Positions 4,157-19,022 of a stretch of 64,000 nt of DNA are shown piece after piece. The stretch spans positions 843,467 to 907,466 of the forward strand of contig OY969115.1 in assembly GCA_963698045.1 (NCBI GenBank), written 5' to 3'. Within the stretch, counting starts at the first letter, position 1, and each line of letters begins with the position of its first letter. Source of the DNA: an uncultured bacterium. GTDB lineage: Bacteria > Babelota > Babeliae > Babelales > Vermiphilaceae. The notes beneath the pieces are model-generated. The model saw only the letters and a list, made by a program, of their open reading frames with translations. It made no database searches and was not told where the DNA came from. Made by a program: the position numbers and the translations under genes.

Positions 4157-4355
4157 TGGCCACTTCCCTTACAAATAATGATTATATTTCCCTATAAAAT
4201 ACCAGGATTCCTCTCTTATTAAAACTATTGATTTTAGGCCCCTTGGTTTGTTATATTTACAATTAGGAAATAATATCAAGGAAAAGGGTAGTAGTATAAA
4301 GGACTATAATATAGCCAAACGCGCTTACCAGAGCGCAAGATAAGGAGATTTTATA

Positions 4356-4628
4356 ATGAAGATTAATCGTTCATTAATTATTCTGGTTGTTTTGGCCGGC
4401 AGCAGCATTTGTGCAGCACGATATGCTAATTCACAATTAATGGCCTGCTCAGAACCTTCAGAAGGTACCTGCGCTTATAATGAAAGCCCGGCAACCAGTG
4501 ATGTGTCACGCAGACCAAGTTATCTTAGACGTGTTTCTCTTGATTACCATGGCAATGAATATAGCAAACGCATGACCAATGAACACTTTACCTATGATCC
4601 AGAAGAAGCGGGATTAACGGAACGTTAA
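4356..4628 (+). CDS. Small secreted hypothetical protein (90 aa)
   Basis: RBS AAGGAG upstream. Signal peptide MKINRSLIILVVLAGSSICAA. First of five co-oriented small signal-peptide ORFs. Confidence 0.6.
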   Translation: MKINRSLIILVVLAGSSICAARYANSQLMACSEPSEGTCAYNESPATSDVSRRPSYLRRVSLDYHGNEYSKRMTNEHFTYDPEEAGLTER

Positions 4629-7858: not shown

Positions 7859-8068
7859 GATCCCCATACGCTTTGGATGCTAAAGGCCACCCCTATTTTT
7901 CCTATTCTTGCTGCTCAGTCCAATAACGCAAGGCGTTTTGTCCAGTTCGCTAGCAAGCATGGTAAAAACAGTGTGGCGTGCACTCGCCTTTCCATTTATT
8001 CACTCCGCAAGCTGCGTGAAAAATGGCGGCTCACTTCCATTCAAAGCTAGATCAGATTTTTATTTTAT
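7859..8068 (+). repeat. Left copy of a ~210-220-bp inverted repeat flanking the TA cassette
   Basis: Reverse-complement match to 8991..9210, with a near-identical ~45-nt core (GCTCAGTCCAATAACGCAAGGCGTTTTGTCCAGTTCGC) and a shared end TCAGATTTTTATTTTAT. Confidence 0.7.
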
Positions 8069-8990: not shown

Positions 8991-9210
8991 ATAAAATAAA
9001 AATCTGACTTAGCTTAGAAGCCTGCGTGAGCCGGAGCTTTTTTATTGAGCTTGCGTAAATAAAAAAATGTAGGCGAATGCTGACCCGAAATGTTTGCACC
9101 CTACTTGCTGCGAACTGGACAAAACGCCTTGCGTTATTGGACTGAGCTGCAAGGATAGGTAAAACATAAGGGGCGCCACTTATGGCGCGGGTCCTAAGCG
9201 TATAGGGATC
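8991..9210 (-). repeat. Right copy of the inverted repeat flanking the TA cassette
   Basis: Reverse complement of 7859..8068. It supplies the artefactual N-terminal half of track ORF 8752..9213. Confidence 0.7.
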
Positions 9211-9468: not shown

Positions 9469-10578
9469 TTACAACAAATACAACTTCTTCACGACCACCT
9501 CCACCCCCATCTTCTCCTTCCCATCCTTTGGCACCCGTTCCAAAATAGCCAACACCCGCACTTCTACCTTACGGTATATCCCAATAGAAAGCACAGAAAA
9601 ATAACGCGGTTCAAAAGTAGTACTTAATAATGGCTCTATCCCTTTTGGCAATGCAGCAAACGGCTTGCCCTGCCATTGATTAATACCCTTATCCCAATCT
9701 TGCGCCCATGATGCATATGGCTTAAAATTTTTCTCTAATGCTTTAATAAGCTCCTTACGACCTTGCACATCTCCCGCTTGTGTTGTTTTTAGCCCCAAGG
9801 CAGCTGCAAGAGAGTTAGACAATAACCACGGGTCAACATGGGTTTGGTCATTGTACACTGTAAATATATCTGTTAAATAGACCGGCATTTTAGCTTGTGG
9901 TGCTTGCGGTGCCGCAACCTCTTTTTTGCTACGGGACGGTTCAAAATACAGCTGATCTTTAAACACCTCAAATTCTGGAATGTACAATAATTCTGTTACC
10001 TCTTGAATTGGTTGCCCTTCAGCTTTATAAAATTTATCTAATGCTGCCACTATATTGCCGGTTCCTGATTGTTTTACAATGCCCGCAAGTAACGTTTCTA
10101 ACTGCTTTTTAAGTCCACCATCTTTATCTTTGGCACCCTTAAATTCTTTCTTTTTAAAATCATAAAAATTATTAGGATTAATTTTGCCCTCTTCACTCGT
10201 GATAATAATTTCTATGGTGCCATCTATGCCATCAGAAGCCTCTTTTAAGTTAAAGGTCTGCATTCTATTTAAATAGGGCAACACCTCTTCTAAAAAATAG
10301 ACGGTTCTTTTATCTAACGGAGACTGTTTTTCTTGGCCTGGTTGTGCAGCATCTGGTGCCTTTTTTTTATCTACCGGTTTTCCTGCTAAGCGTGCCGCAG
10401 CAATCTGAACTCCTGATAACGCAAGCATTTTCGCCTTCTGACGGGAAATAGCAATAGTAAATTCTGGTACAGCATAATATCCCCGGTTAACCATGTACGT
10501 AATAAGTAACATAGCCGCAGAAATAATAAGCATGGTAAGAACAATAATGTAACCGGGTTTGTTTGTAGATTGGTTCAT
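9469..10578 (-). CDS. GspK-like minor pseudopilin (type II secretion)
   Basis: N-terminal hydrophobic anchor GYIIVLTMLIISAAMLLITYM without the pilin Glu5. GspK-like EEGKINPNN motif. Size 369 aa. Same strand as the gspF-J-like genes. Confidence 0.6.
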   Translation of the reverse strand: MNQSTNKPGYIIVLTMLIISAAMLLITYMVNRGYYAVPEFTIAISRQKAKMLALSGVQIAAARLAGKPVDKKKAPDAAQPGQEKQSPLDKRTVYFLEEVLPYLNRMQTFNLKEASDGIDGTIEIIITSEEGKINPNNFYDFKKKEFKGAKDKDGGLKKQLETLLAGIVKQSGTGNIVAALDKFYKAEGQPIQEVTELLYIPEFEVFKDQLYFEPSRSKKEVAAPQAPQAKMPVYLTDIFTVYNDQTHVDPWLLSNSLAAALGLKTTQAGDVQGRKELIKALEKNFKPYASWAQDWDKGINQWQGKPFAALPKGIEPLLSTTFEPRYFSVLSIGIYRKVEVRVLAILERVPKDGKEKMGVEVVVKKLYLL

Positions 10579-10738: not shown

Positions 10739-12202
10739 TTACTTCTTTATAAAAACCTGCACCATGCCTTTTTCTTCCAAGCGCTTTTGCAACCAAGCTG
10801 GTAACTTCTTAAGTAATGCTATTGCTTCTGGCTGGTACAATTTTAACGGTTCAGGTTTTTTTGGCTTACCGTTCTTGTCTTTATATGCTTTACTTTCAAA
10901 AATTTTATGCAACAACAAGAAGGTTTTTACCCCATCCGTATTTACATACAGTGATTGTATAAAGGTCGGTAGTTCAACAAAAGGAATAAGATTCCATAAT
11001 CTAACAGCGCCATCTGCAGATGCAGATGCAACGGTATTTCCAGCTGGGCTAAATGCAACTGAATATATTGGTGAAAGCTTAATATCTCCATTTAAGAATA
11101 AGGTAGCAATAAGTTTTTTACTAGAAACATCCCACAATTTAATGGTGCCATCCCAAGATCCAGAAATCAGTGTTTTACCGTTTGGACTAAAAGCTACAGA
11201 ATGTACATCTTTCGTATGCCCTTTTAAAGTATAAAGCAATTTCTGATCCGCTACATCCCACAGCTTAATGGTCTTATCATTTGATCCAGTAGCTATTATT
11301 TTACCATCCGGACTAAATGCTACTGAATTAACTATACTAGAATGACCATGCAAAGTGGTAATAAGTTGTTGAGAAGAAAGATCCCATAACTGAACGGTCA
11401 TTTGATAATTAGCAACCGCAATTTTTTTACCATCGGGGCTAAACGCTACTGATAATGCAGTTGCACCATGCAAAATTGCAACATTTTGTTTACTTGCAAT
11501 ATCCCATAATCTAACAGTATCATCATGTGAACCAGAAGCCAGCTGCTTACCATCGGGGCTAAATGCTACTGAATTTACATAACCGGTATGACCACTTAAA
11601 GTGGCAATAGGTTTGTTACTGGAAATATTCCAAAGTTCAATAGTAGTATCATGGTTACCACCAGCAACCATTTTACCATCTGGACTAAATGCTATTGAGT
11701 TTATTATATGGCCAAATGTTCCTACTGTATTTCCCAATTTTAACGTAGTAATAGGCTGTTTATTAAAAACATCAAATAATTTAAGGCCCAAATCTCCATG
11801 ACCTCCATAAGCAAGAATTTTGCCATCTGGACTAAATGCTACTGAATATACAGTACTGCCCTGACCTGGTAACATTATTGGATTTATATCTATAAGAGAT
11901 TTAATCTGTTGTATAAAAGTTGAATTCTGTCTTACACTTTGTGTTGCTGGATCAAATAAATACTGCCCAATAACACGCCTAAAAGCTTCTGCTTTTTCAA
12001 CATTGTCTAACTCTGGATAAAATGGCTTTCCTGTCTCCTGACTTGGTAATTTAACCTCTGCAAGCCCTTTAACAATTTCTTGTATCTGCTGTTCAATAGC
12101 AGTCTGATCACTTTCTTTGGATTCCATTGCAGACACGGATAATGGCACCACTATTGCCAACCCTGCAAAAATAAGAATTTTTTTAATTGTATTCATGGTC
12201 AA
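10739..12202 (-). CDS. Signal-peptide WD40 repeat protein (7 blades), paralog 1
   Basis: Signal peptide MTMNTIKKILIFAGLAIVVPLSVSA. Seven SVAFSPDGK...LWD units. Termini near-identical to the 12225..13706 product. Confidence 0.85.
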   Translation of the reverse strand: MTMNTIKKILIFAGLAIVVPLSVSAMESKESDQTAIEQQIQEIVKGLAEVKLPSQETGKPFYPELDNVEKAEAFRRVIGQYLFDPATQSVRQNSTFIQQIKSLIDINPIMLPGQGSTVYSVAFSPDGKILAYGGHGDLGLKLFDVFNKQPITTLKLGNTVGTFGHIINSIAFSPDGKMVAGGNHDTTIELWNISSNKPIATLSGHTGYVNSVAFSPDGKQLASGSHDDTVRLWDIASKQNVAILHGATALSVAFSPDGKKIAVANYQMTVQLWDLSSQQLITTLHGHSSIVNSVAFSPDGKIIATGSNDKTIKLWDVADQKLLYTLKGHTKDVHSVAFSPNGKTLISGSWDGTIKLWDVSSKKLIATLFLNGDIKLSPIYSVAFSPAGNTVASASADGAVRLWNLIPFVELPTFIQSLYVNTDGVKTFLLLHKIFESKAYKDKNGKPKKPEPLKLYQPEAIALLKKLPAWLQKRLEEKGMVQVFIKK

Positions 12203-12224: not shown

Positions 12225-13706
12225 TTAATTAGTTGTTTTGCTCGGGTTATCTTCCTGCTTTTTCTTTATAAAAACCTGCACCATGCGTTTTTCTTGCAAA
12301 CGCTTTTGCAACCAAGCTGGTAACTTCTTAAGTAATGCTATCGCTTCCGGCTGGTACAATTTTAACGGTTCAGGTTTTTTTGGCTTACCGTTCTTGTCTT
12401 TATCTGCATTACTCTCAAAAATTTTATGCAACAATAAGAAAGTTTTTAAACCATCCGTATTTGCATATAGCGATTGTATAAATAAAGGTAGTTCAACAAA
12501 AGGAGTAAGATTCCATAATCTAATAAAGCCATCCTTAGATCCAGAAGCAAGAGTTTTACCATCTGGACTAAATGCTACTGAAAATATAGCTTCGGTATGA
12601 CCAGGTAAGGTAACATTAAGTTGTTTACTATTTACATCCCATAATTTAATGGTCCCATCGAAAGATCCAGATGCAAGAATTTTGCCATCTGGACTATATG
12701 CTACTGAAGTTACAGACTTTTTATGACCCATTAAAGTAGCAATAGGTTTTTTACTACTTACGTCCCATAAATTAATAGTGGCCCCCGATCCAAAAGCAAC
12801 TGTTTTGCCATCTGGACTAAATACTACTGAACTTTGTAAAGAATGAGCATTTATAGTATCAATAAGTTTTTTACTACTCACACCCCATAAATTAATAATA
12901 TTATCCACAGATCCAGAAGCAAGAGTTTTGCCATCTGGACTAAATGCTACTGAAAGTACCGGCCGAGTATGACTATTTATAGTGGCAATAGGCTGTTTAC
13001 TACTCACATCCCATAATTTAATAGAATCATCAGATCCAGAAGCCAATATTTTGCCATCAGGACTAAATACTACTGAATATACCTTTTCAGTATGGCCAGG
13101 CAAGGTAGCATTAAGTTGTTTACTACTTACATCCCATAATTTGATGGTCTTATCCAAAGATCCAGAAGCCAATGTTTTGCCATCTGGACTAAATGCTACT
13201 GAATATACCGTTTCAGTATGGCCAGGCAAAGTAGCAATGAGCGTATTTTTTTTGGTATCCCATAACTTAATGATACCAAGGGGATATCCCGAAGCCAATG
13301 TTTCGCCATCTGGACTAAACGCTACTGAACGTACTGAAAAGACGTCGTAACGTTCTGAAAAGACGTTGTATTTTAAATTTGTTGAATTTATATCTATAAG
13401 AGATTTAATCTGTTGTATAAAGGTTGAATTCTGTCTTACACTTTGTGTTGCTGGATCAAATAAATATTGCCCAATAACACGTCTTAAAGCCTCTGCTTTT
13501 TCAACATTATCTAACTCTGGATAAAACGGCTTTCCCACAAACTCACTTGGTATTTTGACATCTGCCATCCCTTTTACAATTTCTTGTATCTGCTGTTCAC
13601 TAGCAGTCTGATCACTTTCTTTGGATTCCATTGCAGACACAGATAATGGCACCACTAATGCCAACCCTGCAAAAATAAGAATTTTTTTAATTGTATTCAT
13701 GGTCAA
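12225..13706 (-). CDS. Signal-peptide WD40 repeat protein (7 blades), paralog 2
   Basis: Same signal peptide and N- and C-terminal modules as paralog 1. Seven SVAFSPDGKTLASGS..IKLWDV units. Confidence 0.85.
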   Translation of the reverse strand: MTMNTIKKILIFAGLALVVPLSVSAMESKESDQTASEQQIQEIVKGMADVKIPSEFVGKPFYPELDNVEKAEALRRVIGQYLFDPATQSVRQNSTFIQQIKSLIDINSTNLKYNVFSERYDVFSVRSVAFSPDGETLASGYPLGIIKLWDTKKNTLIATLPGHTETVYSVAFSPDGKTLASGSLDKTIKLWDVSSKQLNATLPGHTEKVYSVVFSPDGKILASGSDDSIKLWDVSSKQPIATINSHTRPVLSVAFSPDGKTLASGSVDNIINLWGVSSKKLIDTINAHSLQSSVVFSPDGKTVAFGSGATINLWDVSSKKPIATLMGHKKSVTSVAYSPDGKILASGSFDGTIKLWDVNSKQLNVTLPGHTEAIFSVAFSPDGKTLASGSKDGFIRLWNLTPFVELPLFIQSLYANTDGLKTFLLLHKIFESNADKDKNGKPKKPEPLKLYQPEAIALLKKLPAWLQKRLQEKRMVQVFIKKKQEDNPSKTTN

Positions 13707-13744
13707 CCTTTACAGAATTAAGAATTACTCAAATTAACGGTAAA

Positions 13745-14153
13745 ATAAAACCCACTTACATATATCCTAATTGATATATCCTAATTGAAATAATACCAAA
13801 TACTGTCCCATTAAATCAATAGTTTTTATAATGATTATTTAAGGTTAAATTGGCACAAAAAAGCCTTAGAATAGGGATTAAGATTTTTACTCAGTTAAAG
13901 TTCAGATTCTGCATGCTAAAAGCAGAAGAAGGCAGGTTAACCTCTAACCCCATGCCAGAAGGTTGCCCATAGATGGGTATGGATCTGTAAAGATAAAAAA
14001 CACTCTGCACAAATCGCGTTAGGACTTGCAACTGCCAAGATTTGGATACTGGATATTTATAAAAAAAAGAGACATGCGTTTTACAACCCTGTTCACCCAG
14101 CGCTAAGTCCAAGGTTTTGGAATAGCTTATTTGGTAAATTTGTAAAATAACAC
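13745..14153. repeat. Intergenic repeat, copy a (upstream of WD40 paralog 2)
   Basis: Aligns with 16745..17095 and 17705..17960. Shared core AATCAATAGTTTTTATAATGATTATTTAAGGTTAAATTGGCACAAAAAAGCCTTAGAAT and downstream blocks. Confidence 0.65.
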
Positions 14154-14186
14154 TAAAAAGAGAGGCACTCATTAGCATGTCTCTCT
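14154..14186 (-). terminator. Rho-independent terminator candidate after the 14221..14943 gene
   Basis: Minus-strand AGAGAGACA / TGCCTCTCT stem (8 of 9 pairs) followed by UUUU, 35 nt after the stop. Confidence 0.45.
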
Positions 14187-14220
14187 TTTGATTCTCTCTT
14201 CTATTTTAAAAATAACTCTT

Positions 14221-14943
14221 TTATTTTCTTTCCTTTACCTCTAACACCGGTTTAAAATCATCTTTAATAGTTATGTTTACAGACCAGTCTTTGTTTCTAT
14301 TTATAAGTTTCATAGATTCTGATGATTTGGATTTGAAGCTTGGTAAAGTACTACTTAATATAAGTTTATCTCCTTCTACTTTTAAATAGTAGGTGACATA
14401 TTCTTCTGATCCGCCACCAGATTTAATTTCTGATCCGCCATCAGATTTAATTTTTGAAATTAGAGCTAGAGTAAGAATTTTAAATGTTCCAGCTTTTAAA
14501 CTATCTGTTTGATCTTTCTTAAGAGCAAGTATTTCTTTTTTAAATATTTCACCGGGTTTAATTTGTTTATGTTCTAGTGAAATTCCTGCATGAATAGTAT
14601 TTTCTTCTGGCATGTCTTTTAATAACTCTTTGAAATATTCTGATCCCTGCATTACACAAACGGGATCCCCGAAAGGGTCGCGCACACAGCGAAATCCTGC
14701 CAAACTTGGATCTGACGAAAAGCCTTGCAACATTGGAGTTGACGACTTGCCTCCAATTGGCGACTGGCTCTTTTGAATATATGCAACCTCTAAATCACCA
14801 TGCTCTAGGGTAGTTTTTACACTTCCACCACCTCCGCTGCCAGGCTTCAGTTCATTTTTAATACTTTCAACATAAATTTGACCTTCTGCAAACCCCATCC
14901 CAACGCTGGTTAAAAGCACCAGTAATGATAAAAACCTCTTCAT
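14221..14943 (-). CDS. Small secreted protein, family member D (240 aa)
   Basis: Signal peptide MKRFLSLLVLLTSVGMGFA, whose first 16 residues are identical to those of the 17100..17690 product. Shares GQIYVESIKNE and C-terminal KDWSVNITIKDD motifs with three paralogs. Confidence 0.7.
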   Translation of the reverse strand: MKRFLSLLVLLTSVGMGFAEGQIYVESIKNELKPGSGGGGSVKTTLEHGDLEVAYIQKSQSPIGGKSSTPMLQGFSSDPSLAGFRCVRDPFGDPVCVMQGSEYFKELLKDMPEENTIHAGISLEHKQIKPGEIFKKEILALKKDQTDSLKAGTFKILTLALISKIKSDGGSEIKSGGGSEEYVTYYLKVEGDKLILSSTLPSFKSKSSESMKLINRNKDWSVNITIKDDFKPVLEVKERK

Positions 14944-14979
14944 AGATATTCTCCTTATAAATAATTAAATTAAGCCCCA

Positions 14980-15504
14980 TTATGATTTTTTAGCTCTCAC
15001 CACAAACTTAACATCAGAATCATTTACAGTTATTTCAACTTCCCAGTTTTTCGTTAGTAAATCCTTATTTTTAAATATCGGATTAGGAAATCCTAATATC
15101 TCTGGAGTTACCAATACCAGTTGATTGTTTTTCGAGTTGTTTTCATCTTTCTTGAATTCTAAATAAAAATCCGCCGTATCACTTTTACCTTTATTTTTAA
15201 TTTTAATCCTTATAACAAATCTGTAAGCTTTCTTACTATTTGTCTCATTATTATTTAAATCAATAGCCAAAATTTCTGTTTCAAATTTTTTTGTTTCGTT
15301 TGGTAGAATAGTGAATTCTTTGGGTGTAAACACCCTAAAGATAGGTGCATTTTCGCTTTCCTTAATATCATCAGTAAACGTATGCCCAGGTGTTGTATTA
15401 TTGGTAACACTCTTAACATAAACCATCCCTTTTTTTAGCTCCTCTGCAAAAAGCATGCCCATGTTGCTCATCAATAATGTCAGTAAAACCATATATTTCT
15501 TCAT
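14980..15504 (-). CDS. Small secreted protein, family member C (174 aa)
   Basis: Signal peptide. GMVYVKSVTNNTTPGH and C-terminal KNWEVEITVNDS motifs shared with paralogs. Confidence 0.7.
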   Translation of the reverse strand: MKKYMVLLTLLMSNMGMLFAEELKKGMVYVKSVTNNTTPGHTFTDDIKESENAPIFRVFTPKEFTILPNETKKFETEILAIDLNNNETNSKKAYRFVIRIKIKNKGKSDTADFYLEFKKDENNSKNNQLVLVTPEILGFPNPIFKNKDLLTKNWEVEITVNDSDVKFVVRAKKS

Positions 15505-15570
15505 AAAATCTTCCTAATAAATAATTTAATTTATCTATCCTTCATGACCTAACTTAGTCCAAGTCGCTCA

Positions 15571-15771
15571 TCAAAATCCTTCGTCTCGATTCCACACTAC
15601 CGTTTTTTTGACTTCCTTTATTTTTTTTTCTGCTGCTGCAATTCTCTTACTTTTTGCTTTCTTTGCTTGCTTCTTTGCCGTGCTAGCTTTATTTTCTTCC
15701 GAAAACATATTCGTGTTAATACCTGTTAAAAGCATGAGTGATGATAACAATGATACAAATCTGCTTTTCAT
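15571..15771 (-). CDS. Small secreted Lys-rich peptide (66 aa)
   Basis: Signal peptide MKSRFVSLLSSLMLLTG and a basic AKKQAKKAKSKR region. Short, so less certain. Confidence 0.45.
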   Translation of the reverse strand: MKSRFVSLLSSLMLLTGINTNMFSEENKASTAKKQAKKAKSKRIAAAEKKIKEVKKTVVWNRDEGF

Positions 15772-15806
15772 ACTATTTTCCTTTTTTTCAAATTTAAAAG
15801 ACTAAA

Positions 15807-16127
15807 TTACTTTTTAAGGTGTACAGCCCTTTTTCTCTTACGACCCTCAGTTCCAGCACTCTTAACAGATCCAGATTGCTTAGATTTCAATAATGCTTCT
15901 TGTGCAGCTAGATCTTCCACTGGTCCTGTTGCCGCAGGTGCAGCAAATGCAGGCATAACCCCAGCTTTATCACCTCCCCAATCAAGCATAACCCCAGCTT
16001 TATCCCAGATAGGTCCTTCAGCCTGATCATAATCAGAACTGGGTTGTGCAATTTCTTTAACTGCTGTACCTTGCAATAGTACACTGCTAGTTAAAAAAAC
16101 CAGCAAAATAACTAAATATTTCTTCAT
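15807..16127 (-). CDS. Small secreted hypothetical protein (106 aa)
   Basis: Signal peptide MKKYLVILLVFLTSSVLLQG. Internal DKAGVM duplication. Basic tail. Confidence 0.55.
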   Translation of the reverse strand: MKKYLVILLVFLTSSVLLQGTAVKEIAQPSSDYDQAEGPIWDKAGVMLDWGGDKAGVMPAFAAPAATGPVEDLAAQEALLKSKQSGSVKSAGTEGRKRKRAVHLKK

Positions 16128-16185
16128 AAGAAATTCTCCTTTTATAAATAATTAGAAGCATTCATTGCTCATTTTTTATGAATAT

Positions 16186-16722
16186 CTATCGCTTAAATAT
16201 CGAGGGTATAATTGAATCGGTAGACATTACTTTTAACTGAGGACCATTGTTAGTGAAAACTATATTCACCAACCAGTCTTTTTCTCTGAGTTTTGCATCT
16301 TCAAATGATCCCTCTATTTTTTCTTTCTCAAAGGTTTTTTCCAAATTATTTACGTTTTGCAAAATCAATTTATTATCTTTGATATCTATATTATAAATTG
16401 CGAAATATAAGAAGGGACCTGATGGGTATTGAACAAGATAATTTTGCGCTATGCTGAATTCCACAACATTTTTTTTCTCTTGATTCAAGTTAAGAACAAG
16501 TAGTGGCGGACTGAACTGGTATACTTCATCCTTATTAAGAGTAATTAATTTAGATCCACCTTCTTTAATCACAATAAAATTTGTTGCAGGTATCTTAATA
16601 CCTTTAGCAACTTCATGTCCCTTTGTTGTTCTATTTTCAACGCTAAAAACATAAATAAGCCCTTTTGCAGATAAGGGAACTACATAAGTCAAAAACATAA
16701 ATAAAATTAAATATCTCTTCAT
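16186..16722 (-). CDS. Small secreted protein, family member B (178 aa)
   Basis: Signal peptide. GLIYVFSVENRTTKGH and C-terminal KDWLVNIVFTNN motifs shared with paralogs. Confidence 0.7.
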   Translation of the reverse strand: MKRYLILFMFLTYVVPLSAKGLIYVFSVENRTTKGHEVAKGIKIPATNFIVIKEGGSKLITLNKDEVYQFSPPLLVLNLNQEKKNVVEFSIAQNYLVQYPSGPFLYFAIYNIDIKDNKLILQNVNNLEKTFEKEKIEGSFEDAKLREKDWLVNIVFTNNGPQLKVMSTDSIIPSIFKR

Positions 16723-16744
16723 TGCGGCTCTCTCTTTTTAAACA

Positions 16745-17095
16745 ATTTCATATCCTAATTGTAATAATAACAAAGTAAGGTCTCCAAAATCAATAGTTTT
16801 TATAATGATTATTTAAAGTTAAATTGGCACAAAAAGGCCTTAGAATATGAATTAAGACTATATACTCAGTTAAGCTTCATAGTATGCATACCAAAAGGTA
16901 AAGAAGGTAGATTACCCTCCTCTAGTTTGCGGCAAACATGCCAAAAGGCGTGCCTAAAGATGATATGGATCTGTACACTCTACATAAAGCGCACGAATAA
17001 CTTGCAACTGCCAAAATTTGGATTATGGATATTTATAAAAAAAAAGAGACATGCTTTTTACACATGCCTCTTGAATTTTGTAAGTGATGTGATGC
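16745..17095. repeat. Intergenic repeat, copy b (upstream of 16186..16722)
   Basis: Aligns with copies a and c. It includes the terminator of the upstream gene. Confidence 0.65.
17036..17071 (-). terminator. Rho-independent terminator after the 17100..17690 gene
   Basis: Minus-strand AGAGGCAUG / CAUGUCUCU 9-bp stem (one G-U pair) followed by a 9-nt U-run. Confidence 0.6.
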
Positions 17096-17099
17096 ACAC

Positions 17100-17690
17100 T
17101 TAATTGTTACTGAGAGGTCTTACTTTTATCTCTGTCTTTTTGTCTTTAATAACTAAATCAACTGCCCAGTCGTTGTTCATGAGATCTATACTTTTAGATT
17201 CAGATGATTTTATAGTGGCAGGTGCTTTAAATATTAATTTATCACCTTCAACTACTAATCCACCAAATGAATTATCATCAAATGTTGCACCTATATCACT
17301 AGCTATAATCTCTGAAGTCTGAACTCTCATCTGAATGGCAAATGTTCCATTTTGTAAACTATTTGTTAGACCTTCATTTAAATCAAGTGCAAGTATTTTC
17401 TTTCTAAAGGTACTTCCTTGTTGTACATTATATTGTTGTTGTACATTATATTGTTGTACATTATATTTCGAGGGTTTCTTCTGAGGATTTTTTTTCGAGG
17501 GTCTCTTCTGAGCTAAAGTACTTCCTCCAGCATTAAAGTTAGTATAAATCCTTATGTCGTGTTCCCCCTCTGCTAAAGTACTTCCACCCCCGCGGATCTC
17601 ATTCTGCACACTTTCAACATAAATACGTCCTTTTGCAGAAACCATCCCAACACTGGTTAAAAGCACCAGTAATGATAAAAACCTCTTCAT
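17100..17690 (-). CDS. Small secreted protein, family member A (196 aa)
   Basis: Signal peptide MKRFLSLLVLLTSVGMVSA. GRIYVESVQNE and C-terminal NNDWAVDLVIKDK motifs. Internal QQYNVQ micro-repeats. Confidence 0.7.
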   Translation of the reverse strand: MKRFLSLLVLLTSVGMVSAKGRIYVESVQNEIRGGGSTLAEGEHDIRIYTNFNAGGSTLAQKRPSKKNPQKKPSKYNVQQYNVQQQYNVQQGSTFRKKILALDLNEGLTNSLQNGTFAIQMRVQTSEIIASDIGATFDDNSFGGLVVEGDKLIFKAPATIKSSESKSIDLMNNDWAVDLVIKDKKTEIKVRPLSNN

Positions 17691-17704
17691 AAGAGTCTCC
17701 TTTA

Positions 17705-17960
17705 TTATATAAACAACTAAAGCATATCTCCTAATTGTAATAATAACAAAGCAAAGCCTCTAAAATCAATAGTTTTTACAATGATTATTTAAAACTAAAT
17801 TGGCACAAAAAGGCCTTAGAATGGGAATTTGGAGTATTACTCAGTTGGGCTTAATAGTATGCATGCTAAAAGGTGAAGACGGCAGCTTGTCCTCTAACCC
17901 CGCAAACATGCCAGAAGGCGGCCCATTAGACGGTCTAAAACGGGGGCCAATATGGGTTCC
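17705..17960. repeat. Intergenic repeat, copy c (overlaps the 3' end of the gspJ-like gene)
   Basis: Aligns with copies a and b. Here the distal part is in frame as the last ~40 codons of the 17841..19022 ORF. Confidence 0.65.
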
Positions 17961-19022
17961 CTCACGAATTCCAACTACTCCTGAAGCGCCAACATTTTTT
18001 GGAAATGCACCCGCAATTTGATGTGGCGGTCCGGAACTAACCGGAACATCTATTGAAGCCGGCTGCCCCTGTGCTTTATCTGTTTTGCTTGGTGTTGTTT
18101 CTGGTTTTTTTGCACTAGGCGGTGGTGGTGTTGGTGACTTTGGAGCAGATAATTGAGATGGTGGTAAAATTGGCACAGTAAATTTCCAGGTACTGTCCCG
18201 CTGATATGCGGCATCCCACAATACTAACGTAAATTCTGCAAAACGGGGCAATGGTGGCATGTCAGATTTTTGTTGGTCCTCTTTTTTTTGCTGACCCCAT
18301 TCTTTTGCTGTTTTATATTCTATCTTCTGCTCTTTAGGTTCTTCCTCTTTTTTTTCTCCCGGCTTTGCTGCAGCTTGTTTTTTTACTGGAACATAATAAT
18401 AGAGTACGGAAAGATTTTTTATGCCATCCAGCAGTTCATATGATCTGAACTCCTGTTTTTCTACCGGTATTTTAGGATCAAAAAATTCATACGCTAATTC
18501 ATCACCCTCTTGTCGCAGTAATTGGTAGGAATTTTTGTGCGCAGGGTCTGGCTGCAATCTATATACCATGCGCGCTAATTTAGGTTGTGGACGCCCCGCT
18601 TTTTTACTCCAGTACACCGGCATTGGATTATTGCTAATAAAGGTAAGCGTTTGCAAATTGGCACCTTTATTTTCACTAAAGAAAATTTTATCTACGGTTG
18701 GCTTTGGTTTTTCTGGCTCTTTCTTTTCTTCTTTTTTCTCTTCTTTTTTTGGCTCTTTTTTGTCACCCTCTTTTGCCTGTTCTTCTTTGGGTTCTTCTGC
18801 TTTTGCCGGTGGAGTTACCGGAACAAAGGCACCCATAAGATCATGTTCTAACTGATTCTGCGCTAACATAACACGGGATGTTTTATGAATAACGTTATCA
18901 AGATTTTTTTTGGTACGGTTTATTTGATATAAAGAAGTAAATAACGCAGCTAATAACATTCCGGAAATTACGGTTCCAATAAGCAGTTCTAATAAAGTAA
19001 AACCGGGAGTAGTATGCTTCAT
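17841..19022 (-). CDS. GspJ-like pseudopilin with a Lys/Glu-rich insert and a Pro-rich tail
   Basis: Prepilin-type N-terminus MKHTTPGFTLLELLIGTVISGMLLAALF. Position after the gspI-like gene. Low-complexity EEPKEEQAKEGDKKEPKKEEKKEEKKEPEKPKP insert. Confidence 0.6.
   Translation of the reverse strand: MKHTTPGFTLLELLIGTVISGMLLAALFTSLYQINRTKKNLDNVIHKTSRVMLAQNQLEHDLMGAFVPVTPPAKAEEPKEEQAKEGDKKEPKKEEKKEEKKEPEKPKPTVDKIFFSENKGANLQTLTFISNNPMPVYWSKKAGRPQPKLARMVYRLQPDPAHKNSYQLLRQEGDELAYEFFDPKIPVEKQEFRSYELLDGIKNLSVLYYYVPVKKQAAAKPGEKKEEEPKEQKIEYKTAKEWGQQKKEDQQKSDMPPLPRFAEFTLVLWDAAYQRDSTWKFTVPILPPSQLSAPKSPTPPPPSAKKPETTPSKTDKAQGQPASIDVPVSSGPPHQIAGAFPKNVGASGVVGIREGTHIGPRFRPSNGPPSGMFAGLEDKLPSSPFSMHTIKPN

Follow-up and report, generated by a model that had tools for sequence, protein, structure and literature searches.

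Why should a cluster of small secreted proteins of no named family lie inside an operon for pseudopilins? The question is raised by a stretch of 64,000 nucleotides (hereafter the window; GenBank assembly GCA_963698045.1, contig OY969115.1, positions 843,467 to 907,466 of the forward strand) from an uncultured bacterium of the Babelales family Vermiphilaceae, which carries four such genes at positions 14221-17690. A preliminary description, made from the sequence of the window, presented them as a four-member family and regarded their place among pseudopilin genes as notable. The genes encode Sec-signal-bearing, all-beta-predicted paralogs that are restricted to one lineage, were multiplied by segmental duplication together with a promoter cassette of their own, and sit in an insertion within the gsp operon of a type II secretion system (T2SS). 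In the reading that we favor, with a probability of about 0.5, they constitute a fast-diversifying family of exported host-interaction proteins, effector-like or displayed at the surface, and possibly cargo of the T2SS.

Homology and distribution of the small secreted proteins

All four open reading frames (ORFs) were found as described on the minus strand, encoding proteins of 196 (member A, 17100..17690), 178 (B, 16186..16722, the most compact), 174 (C, 14980..15504), and 240 amino acids (D, 14221..14943). Pairwise BLASTP among them yields 38-63 bits, signal peptides included. For leave-one-out searches, hidden Markov models (HMMs) were built from the mature parts of all members but one, with the signal peptides cut, and run against the 5,226 ORFs of at least 50 amino acids in the 1.73-Mb genome. 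Each left-out member was recovered (A, E = 3e-17; B, 1e-21; C, 9e-21; D, 7e-14), and no ORF from outside the family was reported even at E<10. Because models of mature sequence alone retrieve every left-out member, the similarity exceeds chance by a wide margin and is not carried by the signal peptides. Members A-D are homologous across their mature parts, and alignment and HMMs agree with the original picture, in which secreted proteins keep their terminal strands and vary in the middle.

Two motifs recur in the alignment of the four members. Motif 1, with the consensus G-x-(I/V)-Y-V-x-S-(V/I)-x-N, lies directly behind the A-x-A-type end of the signal peptide and takes the forms GRIYVESVQN, GLIYVFSVEN, GMVYVKSVTN, and GQIYVESIKN; the terminal SV first ascribed to it holds for A, B, and C, but D reads SI. 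The N-terminus of member A consists of the signal peptide MKRFLSLLVLLTSVGMVSA followed by KGRIYVESVQN. Motif 2, (K/N)(D/N)W-x-V-x-(I/L)-x-(I/F/V), is found near the C-terminus as NDWAVDLVI, KDWLVNIVF, KNWEVEITV, and KDWSVNITI, with one further strand after it; a basic end, reported for the family at large, is present in B, C, and D but not in A, which ends in ...RPLSNN. Members A and D do share their first 16 signal-peptide residues (MKRFLSLLVLLTSVGM), and the low-complexity inserts noted in the middles (GGGGS, QQYNVQ) were located as GSGGGGS and SGGGSE in D and as the YNVQQ-type stretch KYNVQQYNVQQQYNVQQ in A.

The family proved larger than four: the genome holds six clear members and a marginal one, and a sister strain holds another. 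An HMM of the four identified the two further clear paralogs, P0002 (180 amino acids, C1:1567553-1568095, minus strand; E = 7e-15) and P0005 (181 amino acids, C1:631768-632313, plus strand; E = 1e-13). The marginal member, P0009 (244 amino acids, C1:714465-715199, minus strand), came from six-frame searches and carries recognizable motifs, GGLVYLDKIVNN and KKNWSVSLTF, with E = 0.02 once the signal peptide is left out. A profile search of 1.84 billion representative proteins, of the kind proposed at the outset, matched no characterized domain; it returned the paralogs of this genome, fragments from the metagenome contig L008, one unrelated Bacteroidota protein, and P0007 (185 amino acids, E = 9e-34), which lies on the metagenome contig L009 and is the sole member outside this strain. 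Contig L008 is 99.9% identical in nucleotides to the window over 17 kb and belongs to the same strain. In DNA, the flanks of P0007 on L009 match C1:621-645 kb at 90-96% identity, and the housekeeping proteins encoded there (FtsY and others) match at 94-99%; judged by these values, the contig derives from a sister strain or species.

Beyond these, the 260 further genomes searched from the same GTDB order contained no credible match. Nor did word-indexed searches across 5.8 billion clusters reveal any additional member; with the sister-strain member as the query they matched only that member itself. The relatives found through GspF are metagenome-assembled genomes of Candidatus Dependentiae/Babeliales (TM6), Vermiphilus among them. 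Thus, in the data searched, the family appears restricted to this Dependentiae bacterium and one sister strain.

The eight proteins have signal peptides of the n-h-c type, with ends such as VSA↓KG, LSA↓KG, LFA↓EE, and GFA↓EG. A lipobox cysteine is missing: none of the eight has a cysteine in the signal peptide or the mature N-terminus, and seven lack cysteine altogether, the exception being D, with two inside an insert. The mature parts, 154-225 amino acids long, are hydrophilic (grand average of hydropathicity -0.2 to -0.7), and the isoelectric point is about 9 in six of the eight (7.9 in D, 5.2 in P0002). Most starts are preceded at 6-9 nucleotides by an AGGAG element resembling a Shine-Dalgarno sequence. 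As predicted from sequence, these features are ordinary for soluble proteins exported by Sec. A home-made signal-peptide heuristic flagged 51% of all genes and, being non-discriminating, was not used as evidence.

Known families and predicted fold

The family remains unnamed, as first stated. Pfam, NCBIfam, PHROGs, PADLOC, and PDB sequences contained nothing above threshold, and the best curated-family matches among them reached 13-17 bits, each in a single member. Matches to DUF3845, Spore_YtfJ, and the gyrase beta-propeller in Pfam (13-15 bits, one member each) were rejected. So was GspC: the NCBIfam model NF041616 (T2SS_C_SYNERG) matches member A only, at 16.9 bits against a cut-off of 200, over residues 32-105, which are the low-complexity, non-conserved insert, and the match was treated as noise. 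The representative search had returned P0008, a Bacteroidota protein of repeated OB-fold (oligonucleotide/oligosaccharide-binding) domains, at E = 1.4e-6. This value arises from a chance motif resemblance, added up across six repeats; hhalign of the family against P0008 covers only 18 columns (the GTIYVYSVENK motif and the repeat TGTIYVYSVENK) with a probability of 44%, no member matches the OB-fold domain PF01336, and the link was rejected.

Several kinds of envelope protein were considered in the same way. A pseudopilin or type IV pilin-like (GspG-K) identity is contradicted by PF07963, found in the neighboring GspH, GspI, and GspJ-like proteins and in none of the four; pseudopilins are recognized by a prepilin leader with the methylation motif G↓F/M-x-x-x-E and a hydrophobic helix, and the four have signal peptides of the signal peptidase I type. 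A pilotin or TssJ-like outer-membrane lipoprotein was rejected, the invariant lipobox cysteine being absent and the Foldseek match to TssJ1 having E = 0.027 and a TM-score of 0.33 on the query. Barrels of OmpX or OmpW size were also set aside, for the proteins end in N, R, S, K, K, P, and K without the aromatic C-terminal beta-signal, and no outer-membrane barrel figures in the lists of 50 Foldseek matches obtained for each AlphaFold2 model. A Sec or Tat signal peptide, one of the criteria for substrates of type II secretion, is present throughout the family.

A small beta fold had been suggested as a plausible outcome of structure prediction, and the AlphaFold2 models of A and B are indeed all-beta. 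Member A is modeled with a mean predicted local distance difference test score (pLDDT) of 69, and member B with a pLDDT of 80, a predicted template modeling score of 0.76, and eleven strands. Both models assign a pLDDT of about 90 to the strand at the N-terminus and to the final two, from which we infer that the conserved N-terminal strand and the two C-terminal strands belong to the core of the predicted fold; the middle of the protein carries the variable, partly low-complexity stretches. Nothing in the models speaks against homology of the four. Foldseek searches of the PDB with the two models, and of BFVD, found no match with E<1e-3 and a TM-score above about 0.3. The best neighbors are generic sandwiches (best E 0.01, TM-score 0.15-0.33 on the query). 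Those at the top, namely transthyretin/HIUase, TssJ of the type VI secretion system, domain 4 of cholesterol-dependent cytolysins, and Bacteroides type V fimbrial subunits, are all-beta like the family; TssJ and the type V pilins, however, are typically made as lipoprotein precursors, unlike the proteins described here.

The island between gspJ and gspK

Read along the minus strand, the genes follow one another as gspF, G, H, I, J, A, B, a 106-amino-acid ORF, a 66-amino-acid ORF, C, D, WD1, WD2, and gspK. The upstream border is formed by a gspJ-like minor pseudopilin gene with an N_methyl match (17841..19022), and the downstream border by a gspK-like gene (9469..10578) that is present in 41 of 41 relatives searched; both lie on the minus strand. 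Closer inspection of eight relatives placed gspK directly after gspJ in seven, and among the Babeliales loci L036-L115 gspJ abuts gspK in all 70 that hold both genes, with a gap of -42 to 277 nucleotides and, in most, an overlap of a few nucleotides. Here, the two are 7.26 kb apart. Since gspJ adjoins gspK in all 70 relatives, the 7.26-kb stretch is a lineage-specific insertion. The notable position inside the pseudopilin operon is therefore real, but it is derived and peculiar to this lineage.

The island also brings its own regulatory sequences. A non-coding unit of about 200-310 nucleotides occurs in three minus-strand copies, after gspJ, after A, and after D. All three end in a highly conserved stretch of about 110 nucleotides with the candidate promoter TTGATT-18-TATTAT, a TG upstream, and then TTATTACAATTAGG. 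The first copy (17691..17926, hexamers at 17769-17740) extends into the 3' end of the gspJ-like gene. The second occupies 16723..17099 upstream of B (hexamers at 16793-16764), and the third 13707..14220 upstream of WD1 (hexamers at 13819-13790); these two begin with a terminator-like hairpin and T-run, at 17072-17044 and about 14085-14050, respectively, of which the former was listed by a scan and the latter identified as its sequence copy. Rfam returned nothing credible on 13600-18000. The tail of gspJ here runs into the repeated cassette, and GspJ-like proteins of all Babeliales compared have long Lys/Glu/Pro-rich inserts and non-conserved low-complexity tails. With a tail of this kind in all relatives, the repeat unit may have copied the 3' end of gspJ or, alternatively, gspJ may read into the unit.

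This promoter core is also found ahead of P0005, P0009, and a gene for a 90-amino-acid secreted protein at 4356-4628. This last instance (4223-4628, plus strand) has the core, AACTATTGATTT ... TATTTACAATTAGG, ahead of a cysteine-containing ORF with a signal peptide. A genome-wide regulon built around the -35 region was rejected, as AACTATTGATTT with at most one mismatch was counted 41 times where about 34 would be expected; the complete cassette, genome-wide, precedes only duplicated units. The arrangement suggests three transcription units, [gspF-J]-A, B-106-66-C-D, and WD1-WD2-gspK, so that gspK probably now depends on the third promoter cassette of the island. As the insertion is derived and has its own cassettes and hairpins, its position in the operon neither implies co-regulation with the pseudopilins nor constitutes evidence for a part in the pseudopilus.

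Two further genes between B and C, both on the minus strand, do not belong to the family. The 106-amino-acid product (15807..16127), a gene for which was also called in L008, has a signal peptide of the MKKYL..LLVFLTS type seen in the family, yet both family motifs are missing and the HMMs do not match it, so it is not counted as a member; it is Ala/Gly/Pro-rich with a basic tail. The 66-amino-acid product (15571..15771) is Lys-rich with a signal peptide and weakly matches the signal region of the SP0191 lipoprotein model (22 bits; cut-off, 75). No homologs of either were found. Just downstream of gspK, inverted repeats of 55 nucleotides (7896-7950 and 9110-9164, 95% complementary) flank a Gp49/HigB-like and XRE/HigA-like pair; in the relatives, an MlaD/Mce-like gene directly follows gspK.

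The island is completed by two minus-strand genes for WD40 proteins with signal peptides, WD1 (12225..13706) and WD2 (10739..12202). The genome contains 60 paralogs of these, which together account for roughly 5% of its 1.73 Mb; many lie in tandem arrays of 5-10 genes (for example C1 622926-641475, 1059959-1069496, and 1125689-1132369), and most have hydrophobic, signal-peptide-like N-termini. The nearest WD40 gene lies 515 nucleotides from the cluster in the window, 115 nucleotides from P0005, 2.3 kb from P0009, and 14 kb from P0002, where random non-overlapping placement would put 2.2% within 600 nucleotides and 8.4% within 2.5 kb. P0007 has WD40 genes on both sides, at a locus syntenic with that of P0005. 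The recurring genomic partner of the family is thus the expanded WD40 family with signal peptides, and not the pseudopilins. Nominally, the association reaches significance; regions prone to recombination that both families share could account for it equally well. Contig L009 (1-19072) carries the WD40 array of C1:621278-644833, but its propeller genes are fewer, reordered, and much more diverged (55-90% amino acid identity) than the flanking housekeeping genes (94-99%); the array is a rearrangement hotspot. The ends of WD1 and WD2 are 89-91% identical over 300 nucleotides (10743-11042/12262-12561 and 11870-12169/13374-13673), with blades at 60-80%; conserved ends around a variable middle are also the pattern of the small family.

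Possible functions and their significance

Diversification within the small family is uneven. At the level of DNA, A and D share 98% identity in codons 1-15 and about 77% in the non-coding sequence 3' of the gene, whereas their mature parts have a proportion of synonymous differences of 0.58 and middles that cannot be aligned. Read from sequence, either the ends have been homogenized by recombination or they have been selectively kept, and the middles are old or fast-evolving. P0007, which occupies a different slot in the rearranged WD40 array, is 35-43% identical to any copy here, against the 94-99% of the flanking housekeeping proteins. This mosaic of A and D and the fast turnover at L009 characterize a fast-diversifying family.

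The family grew by segmental duplication of units made up of the promoter cassette, an exon-like 5' end encoding the signal peptide, and the gene. One cluster, together with two secreted WD40 genes, was inserted between gspJ and gspK, interrupting an otherwise universally contiguous operon. On the host-interaction reading, Sec would release the proteins into the periplasm, and the type II machinery might then carry them across the outer membrane, whereupon they could act on the protist host of this intracellular parasite as effectors or surface proteins. Dependentiae are inferred to be protist parasites with the T2SS as part of their core, and WD40-type proteins have been proposed as their tools of host interaction (PMC4776705); in Legionella, the Ntt substrates of the T2SS are restricted to the genus, and several are required in amoebae (PMC7325957). 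The present genome encodes GspF-K, two secretins, and two T2SSE ATPases.

Several observations weigh against this reading. To our knowledge, T2SS substrates have no sequence signature by which cargo status could be recognized, and, given that the island has its own promoters, its position in the operon is by itself no sign of functional coupling. The structural models rest on 6-8 sequences. Ratios of non-synonymous to synonymous divergence (dN/dS) of 0.34-1.0 are unreliable, with dS saturated at 0.9 or more, and this saturation precludes a claim of positive selection. Finally, indels of 1-2 nucleotides in L008 frameshift or truncate A, B, and D. These could be assembly errors or population variants; if they are true variants, some of the population may be able to do without these genes or may be losing them.

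The last point leads to the view that the ORFs are non-functional or decaying by-products of duplication in a plastic region. Besides the frameshifts in an otherwise 99.9%-identical contig and the high apparent dN/dS, it can appeal to the fact that 8 of the 13 difference events between the window and L008 over 17 kb fall within the 3.5 kb of the four genes and their spacers (14221-17690). Decay nonetheless seems very improbable, in that seven ORFs are intact and have retained their signal peptides, ribosome-binding sites, and both motifs despite saturated synonymous divergence, an intact member is retained in the sister strain, and the predicted fold is consistent. About equally hard to credit are accessory parts of the secretion apparatus itself, such as factors at the pseudopilus tip or fiber subunits that polymerize through their terminal strands. 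The genes do lie exactly between those of the tip pseudopilins, gspJ and gspK, and conserved terminal strands with variable middles may recall the strand-exchange logic of pilins. However, the proteins lack the prepilin/N-methylation motif of GspH, I, and J, the insertion is absent from all 70 relatives with the same apparatus, three paralogs are encoded elsewhere in the genome, the island has promoters of its own, and the one match to an apparatus component, GspC, is far below its cut-off and confined to low-complexity sequence.

More serious, if still unlikely, is the proposal that the proteins never leave the cell and reside in the periplasm or at the outer membrane as envelope components, for instance small structural or binding beta-sandwiches, with the expansion serving variation of the surface or envelope. 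The Sec signal peptide is the only demonstrable export feature, the proteins are predicted to be all-beta and are mostly basic, and the best Foldseek neighbors, insignificant as they are, include the lipoprotein TssJ1, transthyretin, and Bacteroides fimbrial proteins. Against it stand the lack of a lipobox and of an aromatic C-terminal beta-signal, the ends being K, R, N, S, or P, and the distribution: housekeeping proteins of the envelope are as a rule shared throughout an order, whereas this family is absent from the 260 related genomes. Somewhat more doubtful is a role as partners of the secreted WD40 propellers, in which the small proteins would be co-effectors, adaptors, chaperones, or inhibitors that bind the propeller encoded next to them. 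Such a role would account for the short distances between family and WD40 genes at two of the four loci in this genome and the intermediate one at a third, closer than random placement would usually bring them, and for the WD40 genes on both sides of the sister-strain member; moreover, the neighboring propellers fall into different WD40 subfamilies, so that one composite duplication is not enough to account for the pairing. Yet with 60 WD40 paralogs to seven small genes most propellers have no partner, the member at C1:1567553 has its nearest WD40 gene 14 kb away, the L009 locus, being syntenic with one in this genome, is not an independent case, and two multi-copy families may merely share recombination-prone regions. 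A bolder variant, in our estimation a long shot, would join the small proteins and the neighboring signal-peptide propellers into a hitherto undescribed two-part exported module, in which the small protein docks onto a propeller, or polymerizes on it, through its conserved terminal strands; the module would share a mobile promoter cassette and in this genome be wired into the tip-pseudopilin operon of the T2SS, with gspK co-transcribed with the cargo.

The host-interaction reading has parallels in better-studied bacteria. NttA-NttG of Legionella pneumophila (PMC7325957) are likewise small proteins with Sec signals, sequences nearly confined to one genus, and no recognizable domains, from an organism that has a T2SS and grows inside amoebae. 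The Ntt proteins, however, have no sequence or predicted-fold similarity to the family (NttA is a helical bundle), their genes neither form a tandem set of paralogs nor lie within the gsp operon, and T2SS dependence and a role in infection, demonstrated for them, are possibilities here. The expanded, fast-evolving secreted or surface paralog families of obligate intracellular bacteria, such as the chlamydial Pmp proteins and the giant beta-sheet, leucine-rich repeat, and WD40 arrays of this same genome, resemble the family in being signal-peptide-bearing, multi-copy, clustered, and lineage-restricted, with mosaic or concerted gene ends and divergent middles; the small proteins differ in their much smaller size, a single domain of about 155 amino acids, the absence of autotransporter or repeat architecture, and the lack of homology. 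The family, unnamed and without detectable relatives, is nevertheless of a familiar kind, that of orphan secreted paralogs in reduced intracellular bacteria, and the outcome, a well-defined but functionally open list of candidates, will not surprise specialists.

The Dependentiae, which parasitize protists, are widespread and have for the most part escaped cultivation, and their host-manipulation proteins are almost entirely uncharacterized. To these the window adds a species-level orphan family, exported, confidently predicted to be all-beta with no neighbor in the PDB, and expanded as a promoter-bearing unit. It also provides a case in which an island of possible cargo genes has broken up the translationally coupled junction of gspJ and gspK that 70 of 70 relatives retain. 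Should the proteins be true T2SS cargo or partners of the WD40 propellers, they would open a way to study the delivery of eukaryote-like proteins by these bacteria.

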